DNA from: Escherichia coli
GTDB lineage: Bacteria; Pseudomonadota; Gammaproteobacteria; Enterobacterales; Enterobacteriaceae
DNA length: 64,000 bases
Assembly (NCBI RefSeq): GCF_044647545.1
Contig: NZ_CP172818.1
Strand: one strand, 5' to 3'
Position 1 is the first letter of the stretch. Each line of letters begins with the position of its first letter. The notes under the pieces are model-generated. The model saw only the letters and a program-made list of their open reading frames with translations. It had not been told where the DNA came from and searched no databases. This document shows positions 1,048 to 64,000 of this stretch, one piece after another. Made by a program: the position numbers and the translations under genes.

Positions 1048-3609
1048 ATGAGTGCAATAGAAAATTTCGATGCCCATACGCCCATGATGCAGCAGTATCT
1101 CAAGCTGAAAGCCCAGCATCCCGAGATCCTGCTGTTTTACCGGATGGGCGACTTTTATGAACTGTTTTATGACGACGCAAAACGGGCGTCGCAACTGCTG
1201 GATATTTCACTGACCAAACGCGGTGCTTCAGCGGGAGAGCCAATCCCGATGGCGGGGATTCCCTACCATGCGGTGGAAAACTACCTCGCCAAACTGGTGA
1301 ACCAGGGCGAATCGGTTGCTATTTGTGAACAGATTGGCGATCCGGCGACCAGCAAAGGGCCGGTCGAGCGCAAAGTTGTCCGTATCGTTACGCCGGGCAC
1401 CATCAGCGATGAAGCGCTGTTGCAGGAACGTCAGGACAACCTGCTGGCGGCTATCTGGCAGGACAGTAAAGGTTTCGGCTACGCAACGCTGGATATCAGT
1501 TCCGGTCGTTTTCGCCTGAGCGAACCGGCGGACCGCGAAACGATGGCGGCAGAACTGCAACGTACGAATCCAGCGGAATTACTGTATGCGGAAGATTTCG
1601 CCGAGATGTCGCTGATTGAAGGTCGCCGCGGCCTGCGTCGTCGCCCGCTGTGGGAGTTTGAAATCGACACCGCGCGCCAGCAGTTAAACTTGCAATTTGG
1701 CACTCGCGATCTGGTCGGTTTTGGCGTCGAGAACGCGCCGCGCGGACTTTGTGCCGCCGGTTGTCTGTTGCAATATGCGAAAGATACCCAACGCACGACC
1801 CTGCCGCATATTCGTTCTATCACTATGGAACGTGAGCAGGACAGCATCATTATGGATGCCGCGACGCGTCGTAACCTGGAAATCACCCAGAATCTGGCGG
1901 GTGGTGCGGAAAATACGCTGGCTTCTGTGCTCGACTGCACCGTCACGCCGATGGGCAGCCGTATGCTGAAACGCTGGCTGCATATGCCAGTGCGCGATAC
2001 CCGCGTCTTGCTTGAGCGCCAGCAAACTATTGGCGCATTGCAGGATTTCACCGCCGAGCTGCAGCCGGTACTGCGTCAGGTCGGCGACCTGGAACGTATT
2101 CTGGCGCGTCTGGCTTTACGAACCGCTCGCCCACGCGATCTGGCCCGTATGCGTCACGCTTTCCAGCAACTGCCGGAGCTGCGTGCACTATTAGAAAATG
2201 TCGAAAGCGCACCGGTACAGGCGCTGCGTGAGAAGATGGGCGAGTTTGCCGAACTGCGCGATCTGCTGGAGCGGGCCATTATCGACACACCGCCGGTACT
2301 GGTGCGCGACGGTGGTGTTATCGCGCCGGGCTATAACGAAGAGCTGGATGAGTGGCGGGCGCTGGCTGACGGCGCGACCGATTATCTGGAGCGTCTGGAA
2401 ATCCGCGAGCGTGAACGTACCGGCCTGGACACGCTGAAAGTCGGCTTTAACGCGGTTCATGGTTATTACATTCAGATCAGCCGTGGACAAAGCCATCTGG
2501 CACCCATCAACTATATGCGTCGCCAGACGCTGAAAAACGCCGAACGCTACATTATTCCAGAGCTAAAAGAGTATGAAGACAAAGTACTCACCTCGAAAGG
2601 TAAAGCACTGGCACTGGAAAAACAGCTTTATGAAGAGTTGTTCGACCTGCTGTTGCCGCATCTGGAAGCGTTGCAACAGAGCGCGAGCGCGCTGGCGGAA
2701 CTCGACGTGCTGGTGAACCTGGCGGAACGGGCCTATACCCTGAACTACACCTGCCCGACCTTTATTGATAAACCTGGCATTCGCATTACCGAAGGCCGCC
2801 ATCCAGTGGTTGAACAGGTACTGAACGAACCGTTTATCGCTAACCCGCTAAACCTGTCGCCACAGCGCCGCATGTTGATCATTACCGGTCCGAACATGGG
2901 CGGTAAAAGTACCTATATGCGCCAGACCGCGTTGATTGCGCTGATGGCGTATATCGGCAGCTACGTACCGGCGCAAAAAGTCGAGATTGGCCCGATCGAC
3001 CGTATCTTTACCCGCGTAGGCGCGGCAGACGATCTGGCATCCGGGCGTTCAACCTTTATGGTGGAGATGACCGAAACCGCCAATATTTTACATAACGCCA
3101 CCGAATATAGTCTGGTGTTGATGGATGAGATCGGGCGTGGAACGTCCACTTACGATGGTCTGTCGCTGGCGTGGGCATGCGCGGAAAATCTGGCAAATAA
3201 GATCAAAGCGTTGACGCTGTTTGCTACCCACTATTTCGAGCTGACCCAGTTACCGGAGAAAATGGAAGGCGTCGCCAACGTGCATCTCGATGCGCTGGAG
3301 CACGGCGACACCATTGCCTTTATGCACAGCGTGCAGGATGGCGCGGCGAGCAAAAGCTACGGCCTGGCGGTTGCAGCTCTGGCAGGCGTGCCAAAAGAGG
3401 TTATTAAGCGCGCACGGCAAAAACTGCGTGAGCTGGAAAGCATTTCGCCGAACGCCGCCGCTACACAGGTTGATGGTACGCAGATGTCCCTGCTTTCTGC
3501 GCCAGAAGAAACGTCGCCTGCGGTCGAGGCACTGGAAAACCTCGACCCGGATTCACTGACTCCGCGTCAGGCGCTGGAGTGGATTTATCGGTTGAAGAGT
3601 CTGGTGTAA
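1048..3609 (+). CDS. mutS: DNA mismatch repair protein MutS
   Basis: 853-aa ORF; Walker [10 protein letters not shown]; N-terminal [17 protein letters not shown] matches E. coli MutS. Confidence 0.97.
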
Positions 3610-3615
3610 TAACAA

Positions 3616-3642
3616 TTCCCGATAGTCTTTTGCTATCGGGAA
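3616..3642 (+). terminator. Hairpin (ttcccgatag / ctatcgggaa) just after the mutS stop
   Basis: 10-bp inverted repeat with a 7-nt loop. Confidence 0.5.
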
Positions 3643-3714
3643 TATTAACGACAACTGACGAATCAAATAAAAATACCCTGTATAATAGGAAATCTTATTT
3701 TACAGGGTAAAACC

Positions 3715-4371
3715 ATGCCATCTACACGCTATCAAAAAATTAATGCCCATCACTATCGTTATATATGGGCCGTTGGTGATATTCATGGTGACTATCAATT
3801 ATTACAATCCCGCTTACATCAACTCTCTTTTTGCCCTGAAACCGACTTACTTATTTCCACAGGCGATAATATTGATCGTGGGCCGAAGAGTCTTAACGTG
3901 CTGCACCTGCTAAACCAACCCTGGTTTACGTCGGTTAAAGGCAACCACGAAGCGATGGCGTTGGATGCATTCGAAACTGGCGATGGAAATATGTGGCTTG
4001 CCAGCGGTGGTGACTGGTTTTTCGATTTAAATGATTCAGAGCAACAAGCGGCAATAGATCTGTTGCTGAAATTCCATCACCTTCCACATATTATTGAAGT
4101 TACTAACGACAACACAAAATATGTCATCACACATGCAGATTATCCGGGGAATGAATATCTCTTTGGTAAAGAAATAGCGGAGAGCGAATTACTCTGGCCT
4201 GTTGATCGTGTGCAGAAATCGCTTAATGGCGAGTTACAACAAATAAACGGCGCTGATTATTTTATATTTGGACATATGGTGTTTGATAACATTCAGACGT
4301 TCGCAAACCAGATTTATATTGATACCGGATCGCCGAAAAGCGGGCGGCTGTCATTTTATAAAATAAAGTAG
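3715..4371 (+). CDS. pphB: Serine/threonine protein phosphatase 2 (PPP family)
   Basis: 218-aa ORF; metallophosphatase motifs GDIHGD, GDNIDRG, GNHE. Confidence 0.9.
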   Translation: MPSTRYQKINAHHYRYIWAVGDIHGDYQLLQSRLHQLSFCPETDLLISTGDNIDRGPKSLNVLHLLNQPWFTSVKGNHEAMALDAFETGDGNMWLASGGDWFFDLNDSEQQAAIDLLLKFHHLPHIIEVTNDNTKYVITHADYPGNEYLFGKEIAESELLWPVDRVQKSLNGELQQINGADYFIFGHMVFDNIQTFANQIYIDTGSPKSGRLSFYKIK

Positions 4372-4372
4372 T

Positions 4373-4398
4373 CTCATGCTTCTTCTGTGAAGCATGAG
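4373..4398. terminator. Hairpin (ctcatgcttc / gaagcatgag) between the convergent genes pphB and ygbI
   Basis: Inverted repeat read directly; no clear T-run on the plus strand. Confidence 0.4.
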
Positions 4399-4420
4399 TA
4401 ACCGAGATGTTCTGCAGGCC

Positions 4421-5190
4421 CCTACTCATTTTTCGCTACCAGCAAAGAGAGATCCTGCTTCGCCAGCACGCAACTGGCGCTCTCCGGCGAAGCCGCATAT
4501 CTAATAATCTGATCAAACTAGTAATGGTAACGCCAGCCATGTCGCCACCTGACCATATTTCGTCGCATCACAGACCAAAACTCGCTGGCGGCTGGCACTG
4601 GCAATCGCCCGTTTCACCGTGACTTTATCTTTCCGCTGGCGTAAATCCCCCGCACACTCCATGACGATGCAGAAATAAAAACCTGATCAATCATCAGGCT
4701 GCGCAGCATGGTCGCAGCGGCTTCCCCGACACAGGAACGGTTTTCCCGACACACTGCACCGCCAGTGTGAATAATTGTGCAATTACTGTTGTCAGCAAGT
4801 AGTTCGCAATAACGAAATCGTTTGTGACCACAGTCAGTGACTCCATGTGAATCAGATGCTGTGCTATCGCTAACGTGGTCGTTCCCGCATCCAGATAGAT
4901 ACAACTTTCCGGCTGAACAGACTTTTGCCGCCAGCTTGCCAATAGCCGCTTTTTGCGTCATTGCCAGCGCAGTTTTACCTAAGTTCGCCATGCGCCACGC
5001 GTCCCGGAGACTGGACGCCTCCGGACACCCAGCACAACGGCTCCCTGCTGCTCCAGTTTTTGTAAATCCCGACGAATGGTCATATGTGACACATTACTCA
5101 TTCTGTCCGTTAGTTCAGCAATACTGACAATGCCTTTTTCAGCTTATCTCAAGGATCATCTGGCGACGCTCTACGGGTATCAACTTTTGC
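4421..5190 (-). pseudogene. ygbI: DeoR-family transcriptional regulator YgbI, disrupted by multiple frameshifts in this sequence
   Basis: Segments matching YgbI (IAELTDRMSNVSHMTIRRDLQKLEQQGAVVL; VSGGVQSPGRVAH; KTALAMTQKAAIGKLAA; CIYLDAGTTTLAIAQHLIHMESLTVVTNDFVIANYLL; NSNCTIIHTGGAVCRENRSCVGEAAATMLRSLMIDQVFISASSWSVRG) lie in different frames on the minus strand; longest intact ORF is 125 aa. Confidence 0.75.
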
Positions 5191-5382
5191 TCCTTCCTTT
5201 GTCCTGCTGACATTCTACGCTATTTGCCTGCGAAACGTGCGCGGCGCAACTAACGCTTAGTTCACATAAAATAACACACAATGTTAATTTATGTGAATCA
5301 GCTCACCATATCGTTATCTTCCAGCGCTTATATTCACAATATCAAACAAAATATCACTTAAATTAACCAACAAGGAGAGCAG

Positions 5383-6291
5383 ATGAAAACGGGATCTGAG
5401 TTTCATGTCGGTATCGTTGGCTTAGGGTGAATGGGAATGGGAGCAGCACTGTCATGTGTCACGAGCAGGTCTTTCTACCTGGGGCGCAGACCTGAACAGC
5501 AATGCCTGCGCTACGTTGAAAGAGGCAGGTGCTTGCGGGGTTGCTTGATAACGCCGCGACGTTTGCCGAAAAACTGGACATTATGCTGGTGCTGGTGGTA
5601 AATGCGGCCCAGGTTAAACAGGTGCTGTTTGGTGAAACGGCGTTTGCACAACATCTGAAACCCGGTACGGCAGTAATGGTTTCTTCCACTATCGCTAGTG
5701 CTGATCGCGCAAGAAATTGCTACCGCTCTGGCTGGATTCGATCTGGAAATGCTGGATGCGCCAGTTTCTGGTGGTGCAGTAAAAGCCGCTAACGGTGAAA
5801 TGACTGTCATGGCCTCCGGTAGCGATATTGCCTTTGAACGACTGGCACCCGTGCTGGAAGCCGTTGCCGGAAAAGTTTATCGCATAGGTGCAGAACCGGG
5901 ACTAAAGAGTTCGACCATTAAAGTTCTTCACCAGTTAGCGGGCGTACATATTGCTGCCGGAGCCGAAGCGATGGCACTTGCAGCCCGTGGGATCCCGCTG
6001 GATGTGATGTATGACGTCGTGACCAATGCCGCCGGAAATTCCTGGATGTTCGAAAACCAGATACGTCATGTGGTGGATGGCGATTACACCCCGCATTCAG
6101 CCGTCGATATTTTTGTTAAGGATCTTGGTCTGGTTGCCGATACAGCCAAAGCCCTGCACTTCCCGCTGCCATTGGCCTCAACAGCATTGAATATGTTCAC
6201 CAGCGCCAGTAACGCGGGTTACGGGAAAGAAGACGATAGCGCAGTTATCAAGATTTTCTCTGGCATCACTCTACCGGGAGCGAAATCATGA
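5383..6291 (+). pseudogene. ygbJ: 3-hydroxyisobutyrate dehydrogenase-family enzyme (L-threonate dehydrogenase YgbJ/LtnD), disrupted by an in-frame TGA and frameshifts
   Basis: MKTGSEFHVGIVGLG followed by TGA at about 5428–5430; homologous pieces in three frames (ORFs 5529..5792 and 5698..6291). Confidence 0.75.
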
Positions 6292-21571: not shown

Positions 21572-21652
21572 TGGGTTTGAAAATGGGAGCTGCGAGTTCT
21601 ACCGCAGGGGCGGGGAATTCTAAGTGATATCCATCATCGCATCCAGTGCGCC

Positions 21653-22418
21653 CGGTTTATCCCCGCTGGCGCGGGGAATCGCCGGAAAATATTCATGATG
21701 GGGGTGGTTATGGCGGTTTATCCCCGCTGGCGCGGGGAATCTCGGGGCCGCCGTGTTCACATTTGCCTAATTTCCCGGTTTATCCCCGCTGGCGCGGGGA
21801 ACTCTATCATAAACGAGGTGAATTTATGGAAACTGTACGGTTTATCCCCGCTGGCGCGGGGAACTCGTTAGTTTTCGAAAAAATTGTTTTCTTACGCTGG
21901 TTTATCCCCGCTGGCGCGGGGAACTCAATTATTGTCGTGGACAAATGCCGGTGTTATTGCGGTTTATCCCCGCTGGCGCGGGGAACTCATTCGAGACAAT
22001 CTCTCAAAATTAATGAAATCGGTTTATCCCCGCTGGCGCGGGGAACTCCAGGTATCAAGAAATAATCGAAGCCTTCATGACGGTTTATCCCCGCTGGCGC
22101 GGGGAACTCAATTGATTGCTGGGTGATATTGGAAAATGTTGCGGTTTATCCCCGCTGGCGCGGGGAACTCCTACCGTACAGATCCTGACCGGATATTATT
22201 TTTTTGCGGTTTATCCCCGCTGGCGCGGGGAACTCCGACGTTCGACGAAATGCGCGATGGCGGTCGGCGGTTTATCCCCGCTGGCGCGGGGAACTCTTCT
22301 GCGTCCCCGATGTCTGGCCCGACTGGTCCGGTTTATCCCCGCTGGCGCGGGGAACTCTATATGACCGGAACACTTCCGCCTGACGTTTGCGGTTTATCCC
22401 CGCTGGCGCGGGGAACTC
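21653..22418 (-). CRISPR. CRISPR array, type I-E repeat (plus strand CGGTTTATCCCCGCTGGCGCGGGGAACTC), 13 repeats and 12 spacers; leader at the high-coordinate end
   Basis: Repeat starts at about 21653, 21714, 21776, 21838, 21898, 21960, 22020, 22081, 22142, 22207, 22268, 22329, 22390; the two leader-distal repeats end GAATCG/GAATCT. Confidence 0.97.
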
Positions 22419-22523
22419 TCTAAAAGTATACATTTGTTCTTAAAGCATTTTTTCCCATAAAAACAACCCACCAACCTTAATGTAACATTTCCTTATTATT
22501 AAAGATCAGCTAATTCTTTGTTT
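22419..22523 (-). promoter_or_regulatory. AT-rich CRISPR leader between the last repeat and cas2
   Basis: AT-rich non-coding segment adjoining the consensus repeat; leader role is from established knowledge of type I-E arrays. Confidence 0.7.
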
Positions 22524-31174: not shown

Positions 31175-31479
31175 TAATAGCCTCCCTGTTTTTTTAGTAT
31201 TATCGATGATATCAGTGGACTATTTTTCGATGCTGCTCATAAATATCGAATTACAGTGATATACACATGTCTTGCCTCCCTGCAAAGAAGAGACTAACAT
31301 CCGAATTGCTTAGGTTCGAACGCTGGCCTCAGGTTGATAGAAATATCGCCTGGGGCTTTTGTCCATCTGGTACCTCGCGAATGCTTAATGCCAGACAGCC
31401 TCAAGCACCCAACGCCATTCTATACCTGTTAATTCTTCCAACGACGTTCACGTTTAAAATCAGGAATGCTGCTCGCAAA

Positions 31480-31532: not shown

Positions 31533-32267
31533 TTACCCTTCGTGTAATCCACATTCCCTTTTTAAGCCAAAGAAACGCGTTTCTTCTTCCGCCATGCCGG
31601 GTTCCCATTTACGGGTTGTATGGGTATCGCCCACCGATAAATATCCTTCGTCCCATAATGGGTGATATTTCAGGCCATGTTTTTGCAGGTACTGATATAT
31701 CGTTCGGTTATTCCAGTCGATAATCGGCAGCACTTTAAATACGCCACGCTGAATTGCCAGCACCGGTAAATTGGCGCGGCTGCCGGATTGTTCACGGCGC
31801 AGGCCAGCAAACCACGTTTGCGCATTCAGTTCTTTCAGCGCCCGGTTCATCGGTTCGACTTTGTTGATGTCATTGTACTTTTCAATGCCTTCAACGCCCT
31901 GCTCCCACAGTTTGCCGTAGCGTGCTTCCTGCCAGGCGGCGCTTTCAGTAGCACGGTACACTTTCAGGTTGAGCTTGAGTTTGTCCGTTAACTCGTCAAT
32001 AAAGCGGTAGGTTTCCGGGAACAGATAGCCGGTATCGGTGAGGATCACTGGAATATCCGGGTGAATCTGATTCACCAGATGCAGGCTCACCGCCGCCTGA
32101 ATGCCAAAGCTGGAAGAAAGTACATATTCACCAGGCAGATTATCCAGCGCCCAGGCAACGCGGCCTTCAGCGTCCAGTTTTTCCAGTTCGGCGTTAGTTT
32201 CCGCCAGCGCCAGAATGCGATCTACCTTCGGCAGTTCGTTCAGGGCGTTTAGATCGAGTTTGGACAT
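31533..32267 (-). CDS. cysH: Phosphoadenosine phosphosulfate (PAPS) reductase
   Basis: Start taken at [14 protein letters not shown] (244 aa); C-terminal ECGLH motif. Confidence 0.95.
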
Positions 32268-32286
32268 AGATTCCTCACTGTTTGCC

Positions 32287-32328
32287 TTGCCTGATGCGAC
32301 GCTCACGCGTCTTATTAGGCCTACAAGA
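32287..32328. repeat. REP (repetitive extragenic palindromic) element between cysI and cysH
   Basis: gcctgatgcgacgctcacgcgtcttattaggcctacaag matches the REP pattern. Confidence 0.7.
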
Positions 32329-32340
32329 CCGGGCTGATGG

Positions 32341-34053
32341 TTAATCCCATAAATCGCGCGCCGGATCGAGCACCGGGCGAATGATGCCCGCACGCACCGT
32401 AAAGTCGCCGAAGCCTTCACCCGCTTCGCGCTCTTTCGCCCAGCGCCCTATCAGTTCATCAAGCGACGCCAGGATTTCCGGCTCGGTGATGTTTTCTTTA
32501 TACATCCGTGGGATACGTGTCCCAATGCGGTTGCCGCCAAGATGCAGGTTGTAGCGACCCGGCGCTTTCCCCACCAGGCCCACTTCCGCCAGCATCGCGC
32601 GACCACAACCGTTCGGGCAGCCTGTTACACGCATCACGATATGCTCATCGCTGACACCATGTTTCGCCATTAAATTATCGATGTTGTCGATAAAAGACGG
32701 CAGGAAACGCTCCGCTTCCGCCATCGCCAGCGGGCAAGTCGGGAATGACACGCAGGCCATTGAGTTTTCACGCTGCGGCGTGACGGCATTCATTAACCCG
32801 CTTTCTTTGGCGATCTTCTCGATCTTCGCTTTCTCGCTTTCCGGCACGCCGGCGATGATCAGATTCTGGTTCGCCGTAATGCGGAAATCACCTTTGTGGA
32901 TCTTCGCGATCTCCAGCAGGCCAGTTTTCAGCGGACGCCCCGGATAATCAAGGATGCGACCATTTTCGATAAATAGCGTCAGGTGCCAGTTATCATCAAT
33001 GCCCTTAACCCAACCAATACGATCGCCGCGTCCGGTGAACTCATACGGACGGATCGGTTCAAATTTGATCCCCGCGCGACGCTCCACTTCCGCTTTAAAC
33101 GTCTCAACCCCCACGCGCTCCAGCGTGTATTTGGTTTTGGCATTTTTACGATCGGTTCGGTTACCCCAGTCACGCTGAGTTGTCACGACGGCTTCCGCCA
33201 CCGCCAGCGTATGCTCCAGCGGCAGATAGCCAAACTCACTCGCCGTGCGGGCGTAGGTTTTCTTGTTGCCGTGTTCGATAGAAAGCCCACCCCCCACCAG
33301 CAGGTTAAAGCCCACCAGCTTGCCGTTTTCGGCGATTGCCACGAAGTTCATGTCGTTGGCATGCAGATCGATATCGTTCTGCGGCGGGATCACTACCGTG
33401 GTTTTGAATTTACGCGGCAAATAAGTCTGACCGAGGATCGGTTCTTCATCGGTGGTGGCGACTTTTTCCTGATCGAGCCAGATCTCCGCATACGCGCGGG
33501 TACGCGGCAGCAGATGTTCAGATATTTTCTTAGCCCATTCATAGGCTTCCGCGTGCAGCTGCGACTCGTAAGGGTTCGAGGTGCAGAGTACGTTACGGTT
33601 CATGTCGTTAGCAGTCGCCAGCGCATCAAGACCGACCGAGTGCAGCATCTGGTGCACCGGTTTGACGTTCTTTTTCAGAATGCCGTGGAACTGAAACGTC
33701 TGGCGGTTGGTCAGGCGAATGCTGCCATAGATGGTGTTTTCACCGGCAAATTTATCGATCGCCTGCCACTGTTTGGTGGTAATCACCCCACCCGGCAGAC
33801 GACAGCGCAACAGCATCGCGTGGCGCGGCTCCAGCTTCTGTTCAGCACGTTCGGCGCGGATGTCGCGGTCATCCTGCTGATACATGCCGTGGAAGCGGAT
33901 CAGCAGGAAGTTGTCGCCCTTAAAGCCGCCGGTCAGACCGTCGTTTAAATCTTCCGCAATGGTGCCGCGCAGGTAGTTGCTTTCAAGCTTCATGCGCTCG
34001 GCGTCTGTCAGTTTTCCTTCGACCACTAAAGGCCCTGGATGTTTTTCGCTCAT
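32341..34053 (-). CDS. cysI: Sulfite reductase (NADPH) hemoprotein beta subunit
   Basis: 570-aa ORF; siroheme/Fe-S Cys cluster ([17 protein letters not shown]). Confidence 0.96.
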
Positions 34054-35852
34054 TAGTAGACATCTCGCTGATAACGGCGCTCTACGCGCAGCTCACTTAA
34101 AAATTCATCCGCCGCTTCGGTGTCCATGCCACCAAATTCGGCAATCACTTCCAGAAGTGCCTGTTCAACGTCTTTCGCCATGCGATTAGCGTCGCCGCAG
34201 ACATAAATGTGGGCACCGTCATTGATCCAGCGCCACAGCTCTGCGCCCTGTTCGCGCAGTTTGTCTTGTACATAAACTTTTTCTTTTTGGTCGCGCGACC
34301 AGGCAAGATCGATACGCGTCAGCACGCCCTCTTTGACGTAGCGCTGCCATTCCACCTGGTAGAGGAAATCTTCCGTAAAGTGCGGGTTGCCAAAGAACAA
34401 CCAGTTTTTCCCCGGCGCTTCGTCGGCGGCGCGTTGCTGCATAAAGGCGCGGAACGGCGCGATGCCGGTGCCTGGGCCAATCATAATGACCGGCGTTTCC
34501 GGGTTCGCCGGCAGACGGAAGTTGTCGTTGTGCTCGATAAAGACGCGAACTTCGCCCTCCTCTTCGACACGGTCAGCCAGGAAGCTGGATGCACCGCCCG
34601 CGCGAGCACGGCCTTCGATGTCATAACGCACCACACCCACGGTCACGTGGACTTCGCTTTCCACTTCCGCCTGCGAAGAGGCGATAGAGTAAAGACGCGG
34701 CGTCAGTGGACGTAACAGGCCAACCAGCGCTTCTGCATCCAGCTGTGCTGGCGCGAAACGCACCATATCAACAATCGGCGTGGTGGCCGCATAGTGCTGC
34801 AACTTCGCTTTATCGCCCACTAACGGCAGCAAGGATTCGCTGCGCGTCAAGGTGGCGTAATTCTCAACGATGTTGGCCGTGTTGACGGTCAGTTCAAAAT
34901 GCCACTGTAGCGCCTCATTCAGCGGCAGGGTTTTGCCCTCAACGGTGACAGGTTCATCACCTTTCAGCCACAGCAGTTCGACAAGTTCTTTCACCAGTGC
35001 CGGATCGTTCTGATACCAGACGCCCAGCGCGTCACCCGGCTGGTAACGCAGGCCCGAGTCACCTAAGTCAATTTCGATATGGCGAACGTCTTTTTCAGAG
35101 TTACGCCCGGTAATTTTCTGGTTAACAGAGAGGCTCGCCACCAGCGGCGCGTCTTTGCTGTACGGGCTGGTGTGGATTTCATTTACCGCGCCAGTAGCGA
35201 CGGATTGCGAAGGTGCCGCGACAGGCGCACGCGATTTAAGCGCATCAACCACGCGGGCGCGCCACTCGCTGGCAGCGGCCTGATATTCAACGTCGGCATC
35301 GACACGGTCGAGCAGGCGTTCACCGCCCTGTTCCGCCAGCTTGCTGTCAAAATCTTTCCCGGACTGGCAGAAAAATTCATAAGAGCTATCGCCGAGGCTA
35401 AACACGGCAAATGCGGTGTTTTCCAGCTTCGGCGCTTTTTTGGAGAACAGGAACTTATGCAGCGCGACGGCTTCTTCCGGCGGTTCCCCTTCCCCTTGCG
35501 TTGACGTCACCACGATGAGCAGTTTTTCGCTGGCGATTTGTTTGAATTTATAGTCGCCCGCGTTCACCAGCTTAACGTTCAGTTTTGCCGCCAATAAATC
35601 ATCGCGTAATGCTTCAGCAACCCGGCGCGCATTGCCGGTTTGCGAGGCGGAGATAATAGTTATACCCGGCATTTCTGCGGCGGGCGCTGGCGTCGCTGCA
35701 AGCGCAGCAGGCTGCTGGTTGAGCACGCCCCAGAAATAGCCAGAAACCCAGGCAAGCTGGGTAGGAGTTAAATCGGTCGTGGCCGCCTGAAGGCGTGCCA
35801 GTTGCTCCGGGTTCAACGGAAGCAACGCGGAAGGTGGGACCTGTGTCGTCAT
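34053..35852 (-). CDS. cysJ: Sulfite reductase (NADPH) flavoprotein alpha subunit
   Basis: 599-aa ORF; flavodoxin and FNR-like domains; 1-bp overlap with cysI. Confidence 0.96.
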
Positions 35853-38149: not shown

Positions 38150-38725
38150 ATGCCCCTCTTACACCTGCTCCGCCAGAATCCGGTGATTGCTGCCGTTAAA
38201 GATAATGCCAGCCTGCAACTGGCAATCGACTCTGAATGCCAGTTTATTTCCGTGTTGTACGGCAATATCTGCACCATCAGTCATATCGTCAAAAAGATTA
38301 AAAGTGCCGGGAAATATGCCTTTATTCATGTCGATTTGCTGGAAGGCGCATCGAACAAAGAAGTGGTGATTCAGTTTCTGAAACTGGTGACCGAGGCGGA
38401 CGGCATTATCAGCACGAAAGCATCGATGCTGAAAGCAGCAAGAGCGGAAGGTTTTTTCTGTATTCATCGCCTGTTTATTGTTGATTCGATTTCGTTTCAC
38501 AACATTGATAAGCAAGTTGCGCAATCGAATCCGGATTGTATTGAGATCCTGCCTGGCTGTATGCCCAAAGTGCTGGGCTGGGTGACGGAGAAAATCCGCC
38601 AACCGCTGATTGCTGGCGGGCTGGTGTGCGATGAAGAAGATGCGCGTAATGCGATTAACGCAGGTGTCGTGGCGCTTTCCACCACGAATACCGGGGTCTG
38701 GACGCTAGCGAAAAAATTGCTTTGA
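38150..38725 (+). CDS. ygcP: GlpP-family (glycerol-3-phosphate responsive) antiterminator homologue
   Basis: 191-aa ORF starting MPLLHLLRQNPVIAAVKDN. Confidence 0.8.
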   Translation: MPLLHLLRQNPVIAAVKDNASLQLAIDSECQFISVLYGNICTISHIVKKIKSAGKYAFIHVDLLEGASNKEVVIQFLKLVTEADGIISTKASMLKAARAEGFFCIHRLFIVDSISFHNIDKQVAQSNPDCIEILPGCMPKVLGWVTEKIRQPLIAGGLVCDEEDARNAINAGVVALSTTNTGVWTLAKKLL

Positions 38726-38760
38726 CGGGATAATCGTAACGAATTGAATTTGTGTGATTT

Positions 38761-38830
38761 GTAGGCTGTACGCCACATCGGACATTCAGCGCCTGATGCG
38801 ACGCTTGACGCGTCTTATCAGGCCTACAAG
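38761..38830. repeat. Pair of REP elements in inverted orientation (BIME-like) between the convergent genes ygcP and ygcQ
   Basis: gtaggctgtacgccacatcggacattcagcgcctgatgcgacgcttgacgcgtcttatcaggcctacaag. Confidence 0.7.
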
Positions 38831-38871
38831 TCCCCAGGCCAGAACCGTAGGCAGGATCATCCAGCAACACG

Positions 38872-39732
38872 TTATTGGCAATCTGCGTGAATGTTTGTCA
38901 CCATTGCCTCCAGCACCACTTTCCAGTCATCAACCACGCCAACATCTGCCTGTGAAAATACCGCTGCGCTGGCGTCATGATTAATCGCCACCACAAACTT
39001 GCTATTGCATACGCCCGCCATTAACGCTGCTGCGCCAGAAGCGCCAACAACAATACACACCTCAGGTGCCAGCAGATGTCCGGAAATACCAATCACTTTT
39101 TCAGCATCAACGCCACCGTTCATCACTCGCGCCCGACTGTAGCCCACTTCGGCTCCCAGCTTTTCTGCCAGCATAGCGATTTCCTGGTTATCTGCCTCTC
39201 CGCCCTGCCCCACCACCAGCACCCGTCTGGCTTCAGCTAATGGGTCGCGGGTAACATTTTTCAGGTTTTCTAGGCTAACCAGCCAGTCGGGAAGCGCGCC
39301 GGGGACAATGTTCAGTTGCTGCATCCCAGAGGGCAACGTGGCGTTTTTATCTGCTCCCGCCTGACGCGCCAGCGAAAGGCATAGCGGGCGTTTGTCTGTT
39401 TGCAGCGTCGCCGTCAACGCATTTCCCCAGTGGGATTTGCGCACGCTTACGGTTGGAATATCTAACGAAGTCACCTGGCAGATGCTTGCACCATGTAAAC
39501 GCCAGGCCAGCCGGGTCGACAGTTCATCGCCAAACGTTCCCGGCGGAAAGAGAACAACGTCCGCAGGCGTTCGCTGCCACTGTTCCACCAACGCATCCAG
39601 CACCTGTTCCGCCACTACGGGCTGAGGTTCAATCTGCCAGTGCGCCAGGGTACAACCGCTGAAATCCTGCGCCGCCAGCCAGCTCGCTATTGCGGCATTC
39701 TCCTGATTTATTGTCACAATTGCGATATTCAT
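38872..39732 (-). CDS. ygcQ: Electron transfer flavoprotein alpha-subunit-like protein
   Basis: Start taken at MNIAIVTINQ (286 aa). Confidence 0.85.
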   Translation of the reverse strand: MNIAIVTINQENAAIASWLAAQDFSGCTLAHWQIEPQPVVAEQVLDALVEQWQRTPADVVLFPPGTFGDELSTRLAWRLHGASICQVTSLDIPTVSVRKSHWGNALTATLQTDKRPLCLSLARQAGADKNATLPSGMQQLNIVPGALPDWLVSLENLKNVTRDPLAEARRVLVVGQGGEADNQEIAMLAEKLGAEVGYSRARVMNGGVDAEKVIGISGHLLAPEVCIVVGASGAAALMAGVCNSKFVVAINHDASAAVFSQADVGVVDDWKVVLEAMVTNIHADCQ

Positions 39733-47374: not shown

Positions 47375-47511
47375 GGTTATCCCCGCTGACGCGGGGAACA
47401 TAAGTTCGACAACTTAAAAAATGATAACAAGTCCGGTTTATCCCCGCTGATGCAGGGAACATAATAAAAACTTTAACTAGTTCGTTTATCCCTGTTGTTA
47501 CAAGGAATATT
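47375..47511 (-). CRISPR. Degenerate CRISPR remnant: three decayed type I-E-like repeats
   Basis: ggttatccccgctgacgcggggaacat; cggtttatccccgctgatgcagggaacat; cgtttatccctgttgttacaaggaatat. Confidence 0.75.
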
Positions 47512-47964
47512 AACTACACTCGATGTCTTTAGAATAAAAGACAATACGAATCGCACTTTATCAATTTTCACTTAAAGTATGAACTGGATATCTTTATTCA
47601 TAAGAACTATTCATCAACAGCGTATAGAGGCGGTTATGTAAAACCACTCATTAGCCTCAAAACAAAGACAAACTTCCAGATTTATTACTTAATCAATGAA
47701 TAACAAGCTTAAAAAATACACTGTTATTCTAAAGAAAAAATTAACAGGCATTAATTAATATTAAAAAAAATAATATATTAAAATTTCTTAACGGTTTAAG
47801 GATTATACAAATAACACTTTGATTAAATTTGATTTTTTGTATCGATAATTGTGAACTTATCTGGCATGGAGAACTATTTTGAACATGAGGTGTTATGTGG
47901 ATATGTTGCTTATTACAAGTACAGCTAATATAAAAACTTGAGAAAGAGATAACGGGTTATATGG

Positions 47965-48367
47965 TGGTTCATCCCCGCTGGCGCGGGGAACACGTCTTTT
48001 TGACCGGCCGGTAAATCGTCTGCCTGCGGTTTATCCCCGCTGGCGCGGGGAACACAAACCATTCTCGCAATCAAGGACTATTCCTAGACGGTTTATCCCC
48101 GCTGGCGCGGGGAACACGGTCGCAGGGAATACAAAGCCGTGCATCCTGCTCGGTTTATCCCCGCTGGCGCGGGGAACACTGGCTCTGCAACAGCAGCACT
48201 ATGACCCCGTCGGTTTATCCCCGCTGGCGCGGGGAACACGAAAAGCTTATGATCGTTAATGCCGCAAACACCGGTTTATCCCCGCTGGCGCGGGGAACAC
48301 ATTACACCTATGTGCGAGCGCCCGGTTTTTGCCGCTAGCGGTTTATCCCCGCTGGCGCGGGGAACAC
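47965..48367 (-). CRISPR. Orphan CRISPR array, 7 repeats and 6 spacers, repeat variant ending GAACAC (plus strand CGGTTTATCCCCGCTGGCGCGGGGAACAC)
   Basis: Repeat starts at about 47965, 48027, 48089, 48151, 48211, 48272, 48339; the first repeat is a variant (ggttcatcc). Confidence 0.95.
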
Positions 48368-48706
48368 TCTAAACATAACCTATTATTAATTAATGATTTT
48401 TTAAGCCAGTCACAATCTACCAACTTTATAGTATCACACAAACAACACATCCATTATGTTAAAGAGCACTTAATCCATTGATTAAAAAGGTAAATATTTA
48501 AAATAACTCTATACAAACTAAAATCTACCAAACTTTACCGCAATAATTTTCACTCCAGCGAAAAATTAACGCCACAGAATTTGTAGAGAATGATAATGAT
48601 TAGTTCAGGATGGGCAAGATGGATGAGTTTTCAGAGGCGACAAACAATATAAATGAGTAGAAGTCTTTACAGGTTCCACCCATTTATAACGCTTATAAAT
48701 GTTTAA
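48368..48706 (-). promoter_or_regulatory. AT-rich leader of the second CRISPR array
   Basis: AT-rich segment adjoining the most conserved repeat; begins tctaaa like the array 1 leader (tctaaaag). Confidence 0.6.
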
Positions 48707-59017: not shown

Positions 59018-61774
59018 ATGACCAACTACAGCCTGCGCGCACGCATGATGATTCTGATCCTGGCACCGACCGTCCTTATTGGTTTATTGCTGAGTATCTT
59101 TTTCGTCGTGCATCGCTATAACGACTTGCAGCGTCAACTGGAAGATGCCGGTGCCAGCATTATTGAGCCGCTTGCAGTTTCTACTGAATATGGCATGAGT
59201 CTGCAAAATCGCGAATCTATCGGTCAGTTAATAAGCGTACTGCATCGTCGCCATTCCGATATTGTTCGCGCGATTTCGGTTTATGATGAAAATAACCGAC
59301 TCTTTGTCACCTCCAATTTTCATCTTGATCCCTCATCAATGCAGCTCGGCAGCAACGTGCCGTTTCCTCGCCAGCTCACTGTCACTCGTGACGGCGATAT
59401 TATGATCCTCCGCACGCCGATTATTTCTGAGAGTTACTCCCCCGACGAATCGCCCAGTAGCGATGCCAAAAATAGTCAAAATATGTTGGGATATATTGCG
59501 CTGGAGCTGGATCTTAAATCGGTTCGCTTGCAGCAATATAAAGAGATCTTTATTTCCAGCGTGATGATGCTGTTTTGTATCGGTATTGCGCTTATTTTTG
59601 GCTGGCGCTTAATGCGCGATGTAACCGGTCCGATTCGCAACATGGTGAATACCGTCGACCGCATCCGTCGCGGGCAACTCGACAGCCGGGTGGAAGGATT
59701 TATGCTTGGTGAGCTGGATATGCTGAAAAACGGTATCAACTCGATGGCAATGTCGCTGGCGGCTTATCACGAAGAGATGCAACACAATATCGACCAGGCG
59801 ACGTCCGATCTGCGTGAGACGCTGGAGCAAATGGAGATTCAGAACGTTGAGTTGGATCTGGCGAAAAAGCGCGCCCAGGAAGCGGCGCGTATTAAATCCG
59901 AGTTTCTGGCAAATATGTCACACGAGCTGCGTACACCACTGAATGGTGTTATTGGCTTTACCCGCCTGACGCTGAAAACAGAATTAACACCAACGCAGCG
60001 CGATCACCTGAATACGATTGAACGTTCGGCAAATAATTTGCTGGCAATTATTAATGATGTTCTCGACTTCTCGAAACTGGAAGCAGGTAAGCTGATTCTG
60101 GAAAGTATTCCATTCCCACTACGCAGCACGCTGGATGAAGTCGTTACCCTGCTGGCACATTCTTCTCACGATAAAGGGCTGGAACTGACGCTCAATATTA
60201 AAAGCGACGTGCCTGATAACGTGATCGGCGACCCACTACGATTACAGCAAATCATCACTAACCTGGTGGGGAATGCAATTAAATTCACCGAGAATGGCAA
60301 CATTGATATTCTGGTAGAAAAACGTGCGCTGAGTAATACCAAAGTGCAAATTGAAGTGCAGATTCGGGATACCGGCATTGGTATTCCTGAACGCGATCAA
60401 TCGCGCTTATTCCAGGCCTTCAGACAGGCTGATGCCAGTATTTCCCGCCGTCATGGTGGCACCGGGCTGGGGCTGGTGATTACACAAAAACTGGTTAATG
60501 AAATGGGCGGCGATATTTCGTTCCATAGCCAGCCGAATCGCGGTTCAACTTTCTGGTTCCACATTAATCTCGATCTGAACCCGAACATTATTATCGAAGG
60601 GCCATCCACCCAGTGCCTCGCCGGCAAGCGCCTGGCCTATGTCGAACCAAACTCCGCAGCAGCGCAATGCACGCTGGATATTTTAAGTGAAACGCCGCTG
60701 GAAGTGGTTTATAGCCCAACGTTCTCTGCGCTGCCTCCCGCGCATTACGACATGATGTTGTTAGGCATCGCGGTGACCTTCCGCGAGCCGCTAACAATGC
60801 AACATGAGCGATTAGCGAAAGCAGTATCGATGACCGATTTTCTGATGCTGGCACTTCCTTGCCATGCACAAGTCAATGCTGAAAAACTTAAGCAAGATGG
60901 TATCGGCGCGTGTCTGCTGAAACCATTAACACCTACGCGCCTGTTACCTGCCCTGACGGAATTTTGTCATCACAAACAAAACACGCTTTTGCCTGTAACC
61001 GATGAAAGTAAGCTGGCAATGACAGTCATGGCGGTTGATGACAACCCCGCTAACCTGAAACTTATCGGCGCATTGCTGGAAGATATGGTGCAACATGTGG
61101 AACTTTGCGATAGCGGGCATCAGGCGGTTGAACGGGCGAAACAGATGCCGTTCGATTTGATCTTAATGGATATTCAAATGCCGGACATGGACGGCATTCG
61201 GGCCTGCGAACTCATCCACCAGCTCCCCCATCAGCAACAAACGCCGGTTATCGCGGTAACGGCGCATGCAATGGCCGGGCAAAAAGAGAAGCTGCTTGGC
61301 GCAGGGATGAGCGATTATCTGGCGAAACCGATTGAAGAAGAGCGATTGCATAATTTGTTGTTGCGCTATAAGCCTGGCAGCGGTATTTCCTCTCGCGTCG
61401 TGACGCCCGAAGTCAACGAAATTGTGGTGAACCCGAATGCGACCCTCGACTGGCAACTGGCACTACGCCAGGCAGCAGGAAAAACCGATTTAGCGCGCGA
61501 TATGCTGCAAATGTTACTCGATTTCCTGCCTGAAGTTCGCAACAAAGTTGAGGAACAGCTGGTTGGAGAAAACCCGGAAGGCCTGGTTGATTTGATTCAT
61601 AAACTGCATGGCAGTTGCGGCTATAGCGGTGTGCCGCGTATGAAGAATCTCTGCCAACTGATCGAACAACAGCTACGTAGCGGTACTAAAGAAGAAGATT
61701 TGGAGCCGGAGCTGCTGGAACTGTTGGACGAGATGGATAATGTAGCGCGCGAAGCCAGCAAAATTCTCGGGTAA
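59018..61774 (+). CDS. barA: Hybrid sensor histidine kinase BarA
   Basis: 918-aa ORF; HAMP, HisKA (SHELRTPLN), HATPase, receiver and HPt domains. Confidence 0.96.
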
Positions 61775-61848
61775 CGGACGTCTTGTCGAGTAGCAATCGG
61801 CTTTTTATGAAGCTGGTTTCAGACTGGTGACAAAGTGCCTGTGTTTAT

Positions 61849-61882
61849 GCCGGATGCGGCGTTAACGCCTTATCCTGCCTAC
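61849..61882. repeat. REP element downstream of barA
   Basis: tgccggatgcggcgttaacgccttatcctgcctac matches the REP pattern. Confidence 0.6.
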
Positions 61883-61965
61883 AAAATCAATTAAATTCAA
61901 TGAATTAAAAAGTATGTTGGCCTGATACGTAGCGCAACAGGCAATTTTGCGTTTGGCATCAGTCT

Positions 61966-61999
61966 CAAACCGGCTCCTGACAGAGCCGGTTTTTGTTTT
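61966..61999 (+). terminator. Rho-independent terminator (aaccggct cctgacag agccggtt + TTTTTGTTTT)
   Basis: 8-bp stem followed by a T-run. Confidence 0.7.
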
Positions 62000-62004
62000 C
62001 AGTC

Positions 62005-63345
62005 TTAACGCACCATGCACGGGCGCTTGTTATCAAACGTCCAGCCAGGAATCAGGTACTGCATTCCCATCGCATCGTCACGCGCGCCAAGCCCGTGTTT
62101 CTGATACAGCTCGTGGGCTTTCATCACCTGATCCATATCGATTTCTACGCCCAATCCTGGTTTTTGCGGCACCTGTACCAGCCCGCCTTTGATCTCAAAC
62201 GGTTCTTTGGTCAGACGCTGATTGCCTTCCTGCCAGATCCAGTGCGTATCAATAGCAGTAATTTTACCCGGTGCAGCAGCGGCTACATGGGTAAACATCG
62301 CCAGGGAAATATCGAAGTGGTTGTTAGAGTGTGAACCCCAGGTCAGGCCAAATTCATGGCACATTTGCGCCACACGTACCGAACCTTGCATCGTCCAGAA
62401 ATGCGGATCCGCCAGCGGGATATCAACGGATTGCAGGGAGAGCGTATGGCCCATCTGCCGCCAGTCGGTGGCGATCATATTGGTTGCGGTCGGCAGGCCA
62501 GTCGCGCGACGGAACTCTGCCATCACTTCACGCCCGGAGAAACCTTGCTCCGCACCACACGGATCTTCTGCATAAGCCAGCGAACCTTTCAGGTATTTAC
62601 CAATTTTAATCGCTTCGTTCAGCGACCAGGCACCGTTAGGATCGAGGGTAATACGCGCCTGTGGGAAGCGTTGCGCCAGTGCCACAATAGATTCTGCTTC
62701 TTCTTCCCCGGCCAGTACACCGCCCTTCAGTTTGAAATCGTTGAAGCCATATTTTTCATATGCCGCTTCCGCCAGGCGCACCACCGCATCCGGCGTCATC
62801 GCTTCTTCGTGACGCAGGCGATACCAGTCACATTGATCATCCGGCTGGCTTTGATACGGCAGCGGTGTGGCTTTGCGATTACCGACGAAGAACAGATAAC
62901 CGAGCATTTCGACTTCGCTACGCTGTTGACCATCGCCCAGCAGCGATGCCACGTTAACCCCCAGATGCTGCCCCAGCAGATCCAGCATTGCCGCTTCTAT
63001 CCCGGTAACCACATGAATAGTGGTCCGCAGGTCAAATGTCTGCAAACCGCGCCCGCCGGCATCACGATCGGCAAATGTATTACGCACCAGCGTCAGAACG
63101 TTTTTGTATTCACCCAGCGTTTTACCCACCACCAGCGGAATCGCATCTTCCAGCGTTTTACGGATTTTCTCGCCGCCGGGAATTTCCCCTACCCCAGTGT
63201 GACCAGAATTATCTTTGATAATCACAATATTACGCGTGAAGAACGGTGCGTGTGCACCACTCAGATTCATCAGCATACTGTCATGGCCCGCCACCGGGAT
63301 GACCTGCATTTCAGTAACAACAGGCGTCGTAAATTGAGAACTCAT
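62005..63345 (-). CDS. gudD: Glucarate dehydratase (enolase superfamily)
   Basis: Start taken at [23 protein letters not shown] (446 aa). Confidence 0.93.
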
Positions 63346-63365: not shown

Positions 63366-64000
63366 TCAATGACGGCCGAAAACGGGACGTTTACGGTCAA
63401 AGGTCCAGCCGGGGATCAGGTACTGCATCGGGCCCGCGTCGTTACGCGCACCGCCAGGCAGACGTTTATAGGCCTCATGCGCCTTTTGTACCTGCTCCCA
63501 GTCCAGTTCCACGCCCAGACCGGGCGCATCAGGAACGGCAATTTTTCCATTTTTAATCTCCAGCGGATTTTTGGTCAGGCGACAATCGCCCTCCTGCCAA
63601 ATCCAGTGGGTATCGATAGCGGTAGGATTACCCGGTGCCGCCGCGCCCACATGGGTAAACATCGCCAGAGAGATATCAAAGTGGTTATTGGAATGGCAGC
63701 CCCAGGTCAGCCCCCAGTCGTCGCAAAGCTGCGCTACGCGGACTGCACCGGAAAGCGTCCAGAAGTGCGGGTCGGCAAGTGGAATATCTACCGCATTGAG
63801 CATCACCGCATGGCCCATTTCGCGCCAGTTGGTGGCGATCATATTAGTCGCGACGGGCAAGCCGGTCGCCCGCCGAAATTCCGCCATCACTTCACGTCCG
63901 GAGAAACCCTGTTCTGCGCCACACGGATCTTCGGCATAGGTGAGAACATCATTCAGCCCTTTGCACAGAGAAATAGCTTCATCAAGCAGCCATGCTCCGT
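63366..64000 (-). CDS. gudX: Glucarate dehydratase-related protein GudX, partial (N-terminus lies beyond the window end)
   Basis: Reading frame open to the window edge; C-terminal 174 aa paralogous to GudD. Confidence 0.85.

Follow-up and report, generated by a model that had tools for sequence, protein, structure and literature searches.

REP and BIME elements in the cysI–cysH, ygcP–ygcQ and barA–gudD intervals of an Escherichia coli chromosome segment

REP and BIME elements have been on record since the 1980s. The REPs of Escherichia coli are imperfect palindromes of 29–37 nt, which are tagged by the tetranucleotide GTAG or CTAC and occur in hundreds of copies per genome. The element, also termed palindromic unit, reportedly goes back to Stern and Higgins in 1984, and its classification into the types y, z1 and z2 is said to be owed to Gilson and Bachellier. 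As non-autonomous repeats, REPs are spread and reshuffled by a REP-associated tyrosine transposase (RAYT/TnpA_REP) and persist in intergenic spots that tolerate a hairpin. The composite element BIME-1 is also called RIP/RIB. Two insertion sequences encountered at REPs in this study are IS621, a member of the IS110 family with a bridge-RNA recombinase, and IS1397, which belongs to the IS3 family.

The definition of a REP comprises a conserved GTAG and a 2-nt mismatch in the stem needed for the binding of TnpA_REP, and the same source defines the architectures of BIME-1 as well as BIME-2, the former combining z1 and y in a single copy with a long L linker that frequently contains an IHF site (PMC3333891). 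BIME-2 elements are sites of gyrase (PMC6379681). On the RNA level, REP hairpins withstand exonucleases, and for part of the Rho-terminated transcripts they mark the 3′ ends at steady state (PMC6061677). For intercistronic REPs there is a precedent in the malE-malF and hisJ-hisQ junctions (Newbury et al., 1987, cited after PMC6061677). With respect to protein synthesis, a rule of Liang, Rudd & Deutscher (2015) holds, in the form in which it is related in PMC12306157, that a REP located less than 16 nt past the upstream stop codon lowers translation.

We have investigated a 64,000-nt segment of an E. coli chromosome (the window), which carries cas/CRISPR, cysHIJ, ygc, relA, barA and gudD and whose gene order from casE to gudX is collinear with that of MG1655. 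An 801-nt probe around the cysI-cysH REP is 100% identical in FDAARGOS_497 and 95–99% identical in nearly all of 5426 complete genomes. Besides the cysJIH operon, two convergent gene pairs are of interest, with ygcP (+) and ygcQ (−) meeting around 38726-38871 and barA (+) and gudD (−) ending at 61774 and 62005, respectively. No RAYT gene is found within the 64 kb; in MG1655, rayT is flanked by BIMEs. The window further contains two CRISPR arrays of type I-E, whose repeat is CGGTTTATCCCCGCTGGCGCGGGGAAC, one at 21641-22422 (about 13 repeats) and the other at 47377-48379 (about 9 repeats plus degenerate ones); the cas genes are situated between the former array and cysH. At 48471-48483 (−), about 90 nt past the end of the second array, there is an exact IHF consensus (AATCAATGGATTA) in the place expected for the IHF site of a leader. 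Between cas3 and cysH, Rfam identifies a sok antitoxin RNA (RF01794, 102.6 bits) at 31254-31410 (−), which corresponds to the hokX/sokX locus of K-12. Finally, a direct repeat of 300 nt with 75% identity (62188-62487 and 63552-63851, at a spacing of 1364 nt) is consistent with the paralogous genes gudD and gudX. The coordinates of the features discussed in the following are collected in the table.

Coordinates of the REP and BIME features and of the cysJIH genes in the window, with the basis of each assignment
Feature	Position	Strand	Basis
cysH	31533-32267	−	ORF list
cysI-cysH intercistronic spacer, 73 nt	32268-32340	−	sequence and ORF list
Single z2-type REP in the cysI-cysH spacer	32289-32324	−	R1 52.1 bits, E 2e-11
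cysI	32341-34053	−	ORF list
cysJ	34053-35852	−	ORF list
y-REP remnant, GTAG first, left arm of the inverted pair at ygcP-ygcQ	38761-38783	+	read from sequence
Intact z2-type REP, iREP orientation, ending in CTAC	38791-38827	+	R1 55.7 bits; 0 consensus mismatches
Second y-REP remnant (GTAGGCAGGATCATCCAGC)	38847-38865	+	R1 17.4 bits, E 0.02
y-type REP, left half of the BIME-1 at barA-gudD	61849-61882	+	R1 56.8 bits, E 1e-12
L-type long linker (aaaatcaattaaattcaatgaattaaaaagtat), 33 nt, AT-rich	61883-61915	+	likeness to MG1655 linkers
Degenerate z1-type REP (GCCTGTTGCGCTACGTATCAGGCCAAC), right half of the BIME-1	61916-61942	−	z1 consensus alignment

For the identification of REPs, we used about 350 kb of MG1655 as source of reference elements and linkers. 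So that the test would not depend on an assumed consensus, the covariance model R1 was constructed from 32 REPs located in the region 1–250 kb of MG1655 only, at loci unrelated to the window. In the reference alignment, 96% of the stem is paired, and 5 of its 12 pairs show compensatory changes. The types y, z1 and z2 were assigned by alignment to the published REP query sequences contained in the methods of PMC11208160. The MG1655 RefSeq record lacks REP repeat_region features, no Rfam family covers the three REP loci, and a full-text literature search returned no paper that pairs cysJIH or cysH/cysI with the term ‘extragenic palindromic’.

A preliminary description had located REP-like palindromes between cysI and cysH, between ygcP and ygcQ and after barA. 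All three are borne out with essentially unchanged boundaries by a search of the entire window with R1 (filters off), which returned exactly three strong matches of 52–57 bits (E 1e-11 to 1e-12) and a next-best match of 17.4 bits, and in the comparison with the REP consensus, which had been proposed as a check, none of the three loci remained without an alignment. By type, the elements at cysI-cysH and ygcP-ygcQ are z2 and the one following barA is y, with alignment scores of 30–32 compared to a null maximum of about 14 and with at most four aligned positions deviating from the y or z2 consensus. A strict 37-nt consensus matches the ygcP-ygcQ element with 0 mismatches, where 0 matches are expected (100 shuffles), and recovers only this one of the three REPs in the window because the length of the loop varies. 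The 14-nt tail CTTATCMGGCCTAC is found five times with up to two mismatches (0.41 expected), including 32311-32324, 38814-38827 and 61869-61882; the 13-nt head motif alone is at the level of chance (11 matches, 7.9 expected).

The defining structural features are present as well. The R1 structure is fully aligned in all three intact REPs, in line with an imperfect palindrome, and the hairpins have predicted energies between −15.5 and −21.9 kcal/mol (z −2.6 to −5.6). The 2-nt stem mismatch, with GC opposite TT in alignment columns 8-9 and 25-26, is shared by the three intact copies and the 32 reference REPs. CTAC tags are located at 32321-32324, 38824-38827 and 61879-61882 and GTAG tags at 38761-38764 and 38847-38850. 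The repetitive character is evident from the 44-mer 32285-32328, which finds at least 40 places per genome in 5425 of 5426 complete E. coli genomes, and every REP copy in the window sits between ORFs. The heading of operon boundaries, under which the elements had initially been placed, is appropriate for the two loci between convergent genes and does not apply to the cysI-cysH copy, which resides inside the cysJIH operon. The three loci are, with high probability, ordinary members of the REP family (a solitary z2 element, a decayed BIME-2-like cluster and a BIME-1) whose function is passive or weak. As such, these elements are of kinds that were described decades ago and are already known.

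Between ygcP and ygcQ, an inverted pair had been noted at 38761-38830. The pair is real, with the qualification that its left member is only a remnant of a y REP, in which an internal deletion of about 11 nt joins GTAGGCTG to TACGCCACATCGGAC and which R1 does not detect at E ≤ 10. The remnant is clearer in its K-12 orthologue, where GTAGGCCG and CACGCCACATCCGAC agree with the two ends of the y consensus in 8/8 and 13/15 positions, respectively. The intact z2 element has the sequence GCCTGATGCGACGCTTGACGCGTCTTATCAGGCCTAC. A second remnant, which had been missed in the preliminary description, follows 19 nt past the CTAC of the z2 element and 6 nt before the stop codon of ygcQ; it aligns with both ends of R1 and lacks 15 central positions. 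The region 38761-38865, with its succession of a y remnant, an intact z2 and another y remnant, is a decayed or atypical, BIME-2-like BIME. In a BIME-2, intact y and z2 units alternate, usually in tandem, whereas here both y units carry deletions and there is no tandem repetition. We found no terminator-like site in 38650-38950, leaving the convergent spacer without an intrinsic terminator, and no promoters at the junction.

The element at barA-gudD extends beyond the y REP (GCCGGATGCGGCGTTAACGCCTTATCCTGCCTAC; score 30/34 in the alignment to the y consensus). Adjacent to it follow a linker and an inverted z1 copy (61883-61942), both of which had previously gone unnoticed. The linker shares its length class of 33–35 nt, the start AAAA and a WTCAATNNRTT core at equal offset with the linkers of the thrC-yaaX, cueO-gcd and mutT-yacG elements of MG1655; the combined pattern, which was drawn up after seeing the sequence of the window, occurs once in the window compared to 0.00 expected occurrences. 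The linker contains no exact IHF consensus and a predicted near-consensus IHF site, ATTCAATGAATTA, with one mismatch to WATCAANNNNTTR; on the level of DNA, it probably binds IHF. The z1 copy differs from its consensus by a 2-nt deletion, two substitutions and the change of GTAG to GTTG, and the K-12 orthologue retains GTAG. It is a weak match of R1 (11.9 bits, E 0.57) and the best z1 alignment in the window, with a score of 20.5 compared to a null maximum of 13.1 ± 1.3 (highest 19.0). Together, y REP, L linker and inverted z1 REP constitute a BIME-1 at 61849-61942 as a single unit, which is flanked by a weak terminator-like hairpin at 61785-61801 and a strong one at 61967-61992. BLAST searches with the L linker and z1 REP against the 5426 genomes returned the orthologous locus only; other BIME-1 copies are not found because the query is too short and too diverged for a database of 28 Gb. 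At the orthologous locus, 3544 of 5234 records share only 80–90% identity with the window in the segment 61883-61945, and this unusual degree of polymorphism suggests relaxed constraint.

Alternatively, the REP/BIME elements could act mainly on the level of DNA, as sites that organize the chromosome, with the ygcP-ygcQ cluster as target of gyrase and IHF-induced bending at barA-gudD absorbing supercoiling between convergent transcription units. This proposal draws on the over-representation of BIME-2 elements at the sites that gyrase cleaves in vivo, where y REPs are cut more than z2 (PMC6379681), on the frequent presence of IHF sites in L linkers (PMC3333891) and on the location of both elements between convergent genes, where positive supercoils accumulate. 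However, the y REPs, which would be the preferred target of gyrase, are both internally deleted at ygcP-ygcQ, the putative IHF site is mismatched and the segment containing linker and z1 is highly polymorphic (with the identity of 80–90% in 3544 genomes), and we regard such an organizing role as rather improbable.

A different interaction on the level of DNA is documented by insertion sequences residing in the same REPs of other strains; the window itself contains neither IS621 nor IS1397. IS621 is inserted in the cysI-cysH REP in 2 of 5426 complete genomes (EC71 and 7.1994/NIST0056), with the junction ...TTATCAGGC-CT-IS-CT-ACAAG at ATCAGGC-CT-AC and CT as core (equivalent to position 32322 of the window). 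In strain 7.1994/NIST0056, the element spans 4371-5710 of the locus sequence and its transposase gene is annotated as frameshifted. The documented natural target of IS621 is ATCAGGCCTAC (PMC11208160), from which the REP in the window, with ATTAGGCCTAC, deviates by one mismatch. IS1397 occupies the loop of the ygcP-ygcQ z2 REP (38805-38808 in the window) with a duplication of TTGA in 285 of 5426 genomes (as in strain 7/2, at 2613-4039 of the locus sequence), and the shared junction is probably due to inheritance within a lineage. REPs would in this respect serve as landing sites of IS621 and IS1397. The copies described here are live targets of both elements in natural strains, where the insertion of IS621 splits the cysJIH operon, and their use by REP-specific insertion sequences supports the identification of the cysI-cysH and ygcP-ygcQ elements as functioning REPs.

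The cysI-cysH REP is the only one of the three placed within an operon. On the forward strand its sequence is GCCTGATGCGACGCTCACGCGTCTTATTAGGCCTAC, with a stem at 32289-32320 and the CTAC/GTAG tetranucleotide at 32321-32324, and the cysJIH mRNA, transcribed from the minus strand, reads 5′-GTAGGCCUAAUAAGACGCGUGAGCGUCGCAUCAGGC-3′. When locally aligned with the z2 consensus, it reaches a score of 30, with a null maximum of 14.4 ± 1.0. In the order of the mRNA, the spacer consists of the UAA stop codon of cysI, 16 nt, GUAG, the 32-nt stem-loop, 12 nt, the Shine-Dalgarno sequence GAGGA (32276-32272), 4 nt and the AUG of cysH (32267). An intrinsic terminator and an internal promoter of cysH were considered and rejected: in 32150-32650, there is no terminator-like site, the REP being followed by AAGGCAAACAG in place of a U-tract, and no sigma-70-like promoter. 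The lack of both agrees with cysH being transcribed by read-through within cysJIH.

Among E. coli strains, the element is subject to variation in detail. The isolated hairpin of the window has an energy of −15.5 kcal/mol (z −2.6), compared to −18.1 kcal/mol in K-12, which contains an extra bulged U, and −21.9 kcal/mol in the majority allele; in the window, one G-C pair is lost by a C-to-T change, with TTATTAGG replacing TTATCAGG. This loss, the degenerate z1 copy and both y remnants look like decay rather than maintenance. A single z2 REP is found at this position in at least 5283 of 5426 genomes, and in four genomes the allele is 136 nt long and contains a z1-like REP together with a y REP. 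An allele with three REPs, known from one draft genome, occurs in 0 of the 5426 complete genomes. The identical 136-nt spacer with two REPs is common to E. coli N96 and a genome labelled Pseudocitrobacter vendiensis, whose CysH shares 98% identity with the protein of E. coli. The shared spacer and the similarity of CysH suggest either a mislabelled genome or recombination at the locus.

The REP within the operon had been proposed to modulate a differential stability of the mRNA or the translation of cysH. By legitimate analogy to the REPs at malE-malF and hisJ-hisQ, such a role would be plausible; nothing that we have tested at cysI-cysH supports it. In published Term-seq lists of MG1655 (Adams et al., PMC7815308; LB and M63 media; thresholded), no 3′ end is listed at the foot of the REP (MG1655 28883xx), and in minimal medium none is listed for ygcP, ygcQ or the barA-gudD spacer, where absence from a thresholded list is weaker than proof of absence. 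The only 3′ end in the vicinity of the cysI-cysH REP was obtained in M63 with glucose (MG1655 2888409 on the minus strand, corresponding to 32363 of the window; PMC7815308) and falls within the cysI reading frame, 19 nt short of the stop codon, with the REP following 39 nt downstream. An origin of this end in a local hairpin was rejected, the preceding 61 nt folding like shuffled sequences (z +0.5).

Each transcribed REP would form a stable stem-loop without a U-tract, which would not terminate transcription alone and could block the 3′-to-5′ exonucleases PNPase and RNase II. Because stem-loops can act in this way, the REP hairpins at the two convergent pairs probably define or protect the 3′ ends of transcripts. 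At cysI-cysH, the hairpin might at most confer some added protection to the upstream cysJI segment, with RNA polymerase and ribosomes expected to continue to cysH.

A role in translation has been considered in two forms, with the REP either lowering translation of cysI by the stalling of terminating ribosomes and trans-translation, as described by Liang, Rudd & Deutscher, or lowering that of cysH by hindering the binding of the 30S subunit. GTAG follows the cysI stop codon at a distance of 16 nt, and the first base to be paired at one of 20 nt; this is near the reported limit and just misses the rule of less than 16 nt, making the case borderline, with some uncertainty as to the way of measuring the distance. 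The 3′ end at 32363 lies approximately where a ribosome pausing at the stop codon of cysI would have its trailing edge, a connection that is speculative. We rejected the possibility that the stem of the REP sequesters the Shine-Dalgarno sequence of cysH, since its foot is located 12 nt before GAGGA and 21 nt before the AUG. In the minimum-free-energy fold, UGAGG of the Shine-Dalgarno sequence instead pairs with CCAUCA just 3′ of the cysI stop codon, which could favour an effect on cysH; yet this masking comprises only 5 bp in a fold that is no better than that of shuffled sequences (z −1.6). Taken together, we consider a translational function of either form very improbable.

The cysI-cysH spacer was also compared across species in 80 cysH loci, with one locus per species-level Enterobacteriaceae genome. 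Its length ranges from 12 to 234 nt, and 70 of 81 spacers contain a palindromic repeat of some kind, with at least three families at the same intra-operon site. E. coli-type REPs are present in about 25 spacers (among them those of Escherichia, Citrobacter, Salmonella arizonae and diarizonae and of some Kluyvera and Kosakonia), another GTAG-tagged REP family in about 19, as in Klebsiella and Enterobacter, CCCTCTCCC...GGGAGAGGG palindromes in 12, and other or unclear palindromes in 14. The 11 spacers without an element are 12–35 nt long, as exemplified by the 15 nt CCACGAGAGGTATTT in Enterobacter cloacae. When R1 was applied to 289 kb of cysH loci, 47 of its 50 matches were located in this spacer of about 100 nt, and the cysH-proximal REP has the same orientation throughout and ends about 21 nt before the AUG.

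These observations bear on the proposal that the REP is a selected intercistronic regulator, whose hairpin would stabilize the cysJI segment relative to cysH by differential decay, as at malE-malF, and would in this way determine the amount of sulfite reductase relative to PAPS reductase. The presence of hairpins of several families in most spacers, the concentration of E. coli-type matches at this one site, the constant orientation and distance to the AUG in Escherichia, Citrobacter and Salmonella and the near fixation of the single z2 REP in E. coli are in its favour, as is the documented property of REP hairpins to act as barriers for exonucleases (PMC6061677). Conversely, the foot of the REP is devoid of a Term-seq 3′ end in minimal medium, 11 species (Enterobacter cloacae, Leclercia, Lelliottia and Trabulsiella among them) get by with a hairpin-free spacer of 12–35 nt, the strength of the hairpin varies between −15.5 and −21.9 kcal/mol among E. 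coli alleles and the insertion of IS621 at the REP is tolerated in two genomes. Moreover, the apparent ‘hot spot’ is defined by this one spacer and may simply denote a ‘permissive spacer’. We consider a selected regulator of this kind unlikely.

The high occupancy across genera could reflect selection for a hairpin, and a purely passive view would not have predicted it. In its broadest form, the junction would be under selection for an intercistronic hairpin, for example to adjust the ratio of CysJI to CysH, and this requirement would have been filled convergently by at least three unrelated families, namely E. coli-type REPs, GTAGGCCGGGC-type REPs and CCCTCTCCC/GGGAGAGGG palindromes, with the REP being exapted. 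Since this spacer alone was surveyed among intra-operon spacers, we assign a low probability to this scenario and deem it quite doubtful. The occupancy could also originate from an old REP site with a changed repeat family or from a permissive spot. The pattern across genera provides a cheap natural experiment, in which spacers of 12–15 nt can be compared with REP-filled ones with respect to a selected role of intra-operon REPs.

With ordinary REP elements as the preferred assignment, the analysis carries little weight for new biology, the copies residing at conserved and nearly fixed positions of E. coli, and its use lies in part in a corrected parts list, in which the element at barA is a full BIME-1 and the one at ygcP/ygcQ a decayed cluster.

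Compared to the described systems, the cysI-cysH REP resembles the REP stabilizers of malEFG and hisJQMP as an intercistronic hairpin located 3′ of genes whose mRNA could be protected. It differs in that those loci contain at least two REPs and are backed by experimental evidence, whereas cysI-cysH contains a single REP and published Term-seq data place no 3′ end at its foot. With the described hosts of REP-targeting insertion sequences, the loci share that in other strains the cysI-cysH REP harbours IS621 and the loop of the ygcP-ygcQ REP harbours IS1397. In the cluster 38761-38865, as in a BIME-2, y and z2 units of opposite orientation take turns (y, z2, y), with a head-to-head linker of 7 nt as in the BIME-2 arrays of MG1655 and a tail-to-tail linker of 19 nt that is somewhat longer than the 12–16 nt found there. 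Unlike in a BIME-2, both y units have lost their central 11–15 nt, so that only z2 can form a hairpin, and a tandem array is absent. The element 61849-61942 corresponds to a BIME-1 in that a y REP, an AT-rich linker of 33 nt and a z1 in inverted orientation form one unit; it departs from the reference in the single mismatch of its IHF core to WATCAANNNNTTR, in the decayed z1 arm and in the replacement of the TGCA...TGCA dyad of two reference linkers by ATTA...TTAA. With respect to the y, z1 and z2 REPs of E. coli, there is no essential difference beyond the C-to-T change that costs the cysI-cysH copy one stem pair and the GTTG and 2-nt deletion of the z1 copy: length, GTAG/CTAC tag, palindrome with its conserved 2-nt mismatch, extragenic site and high copy number are all the same.
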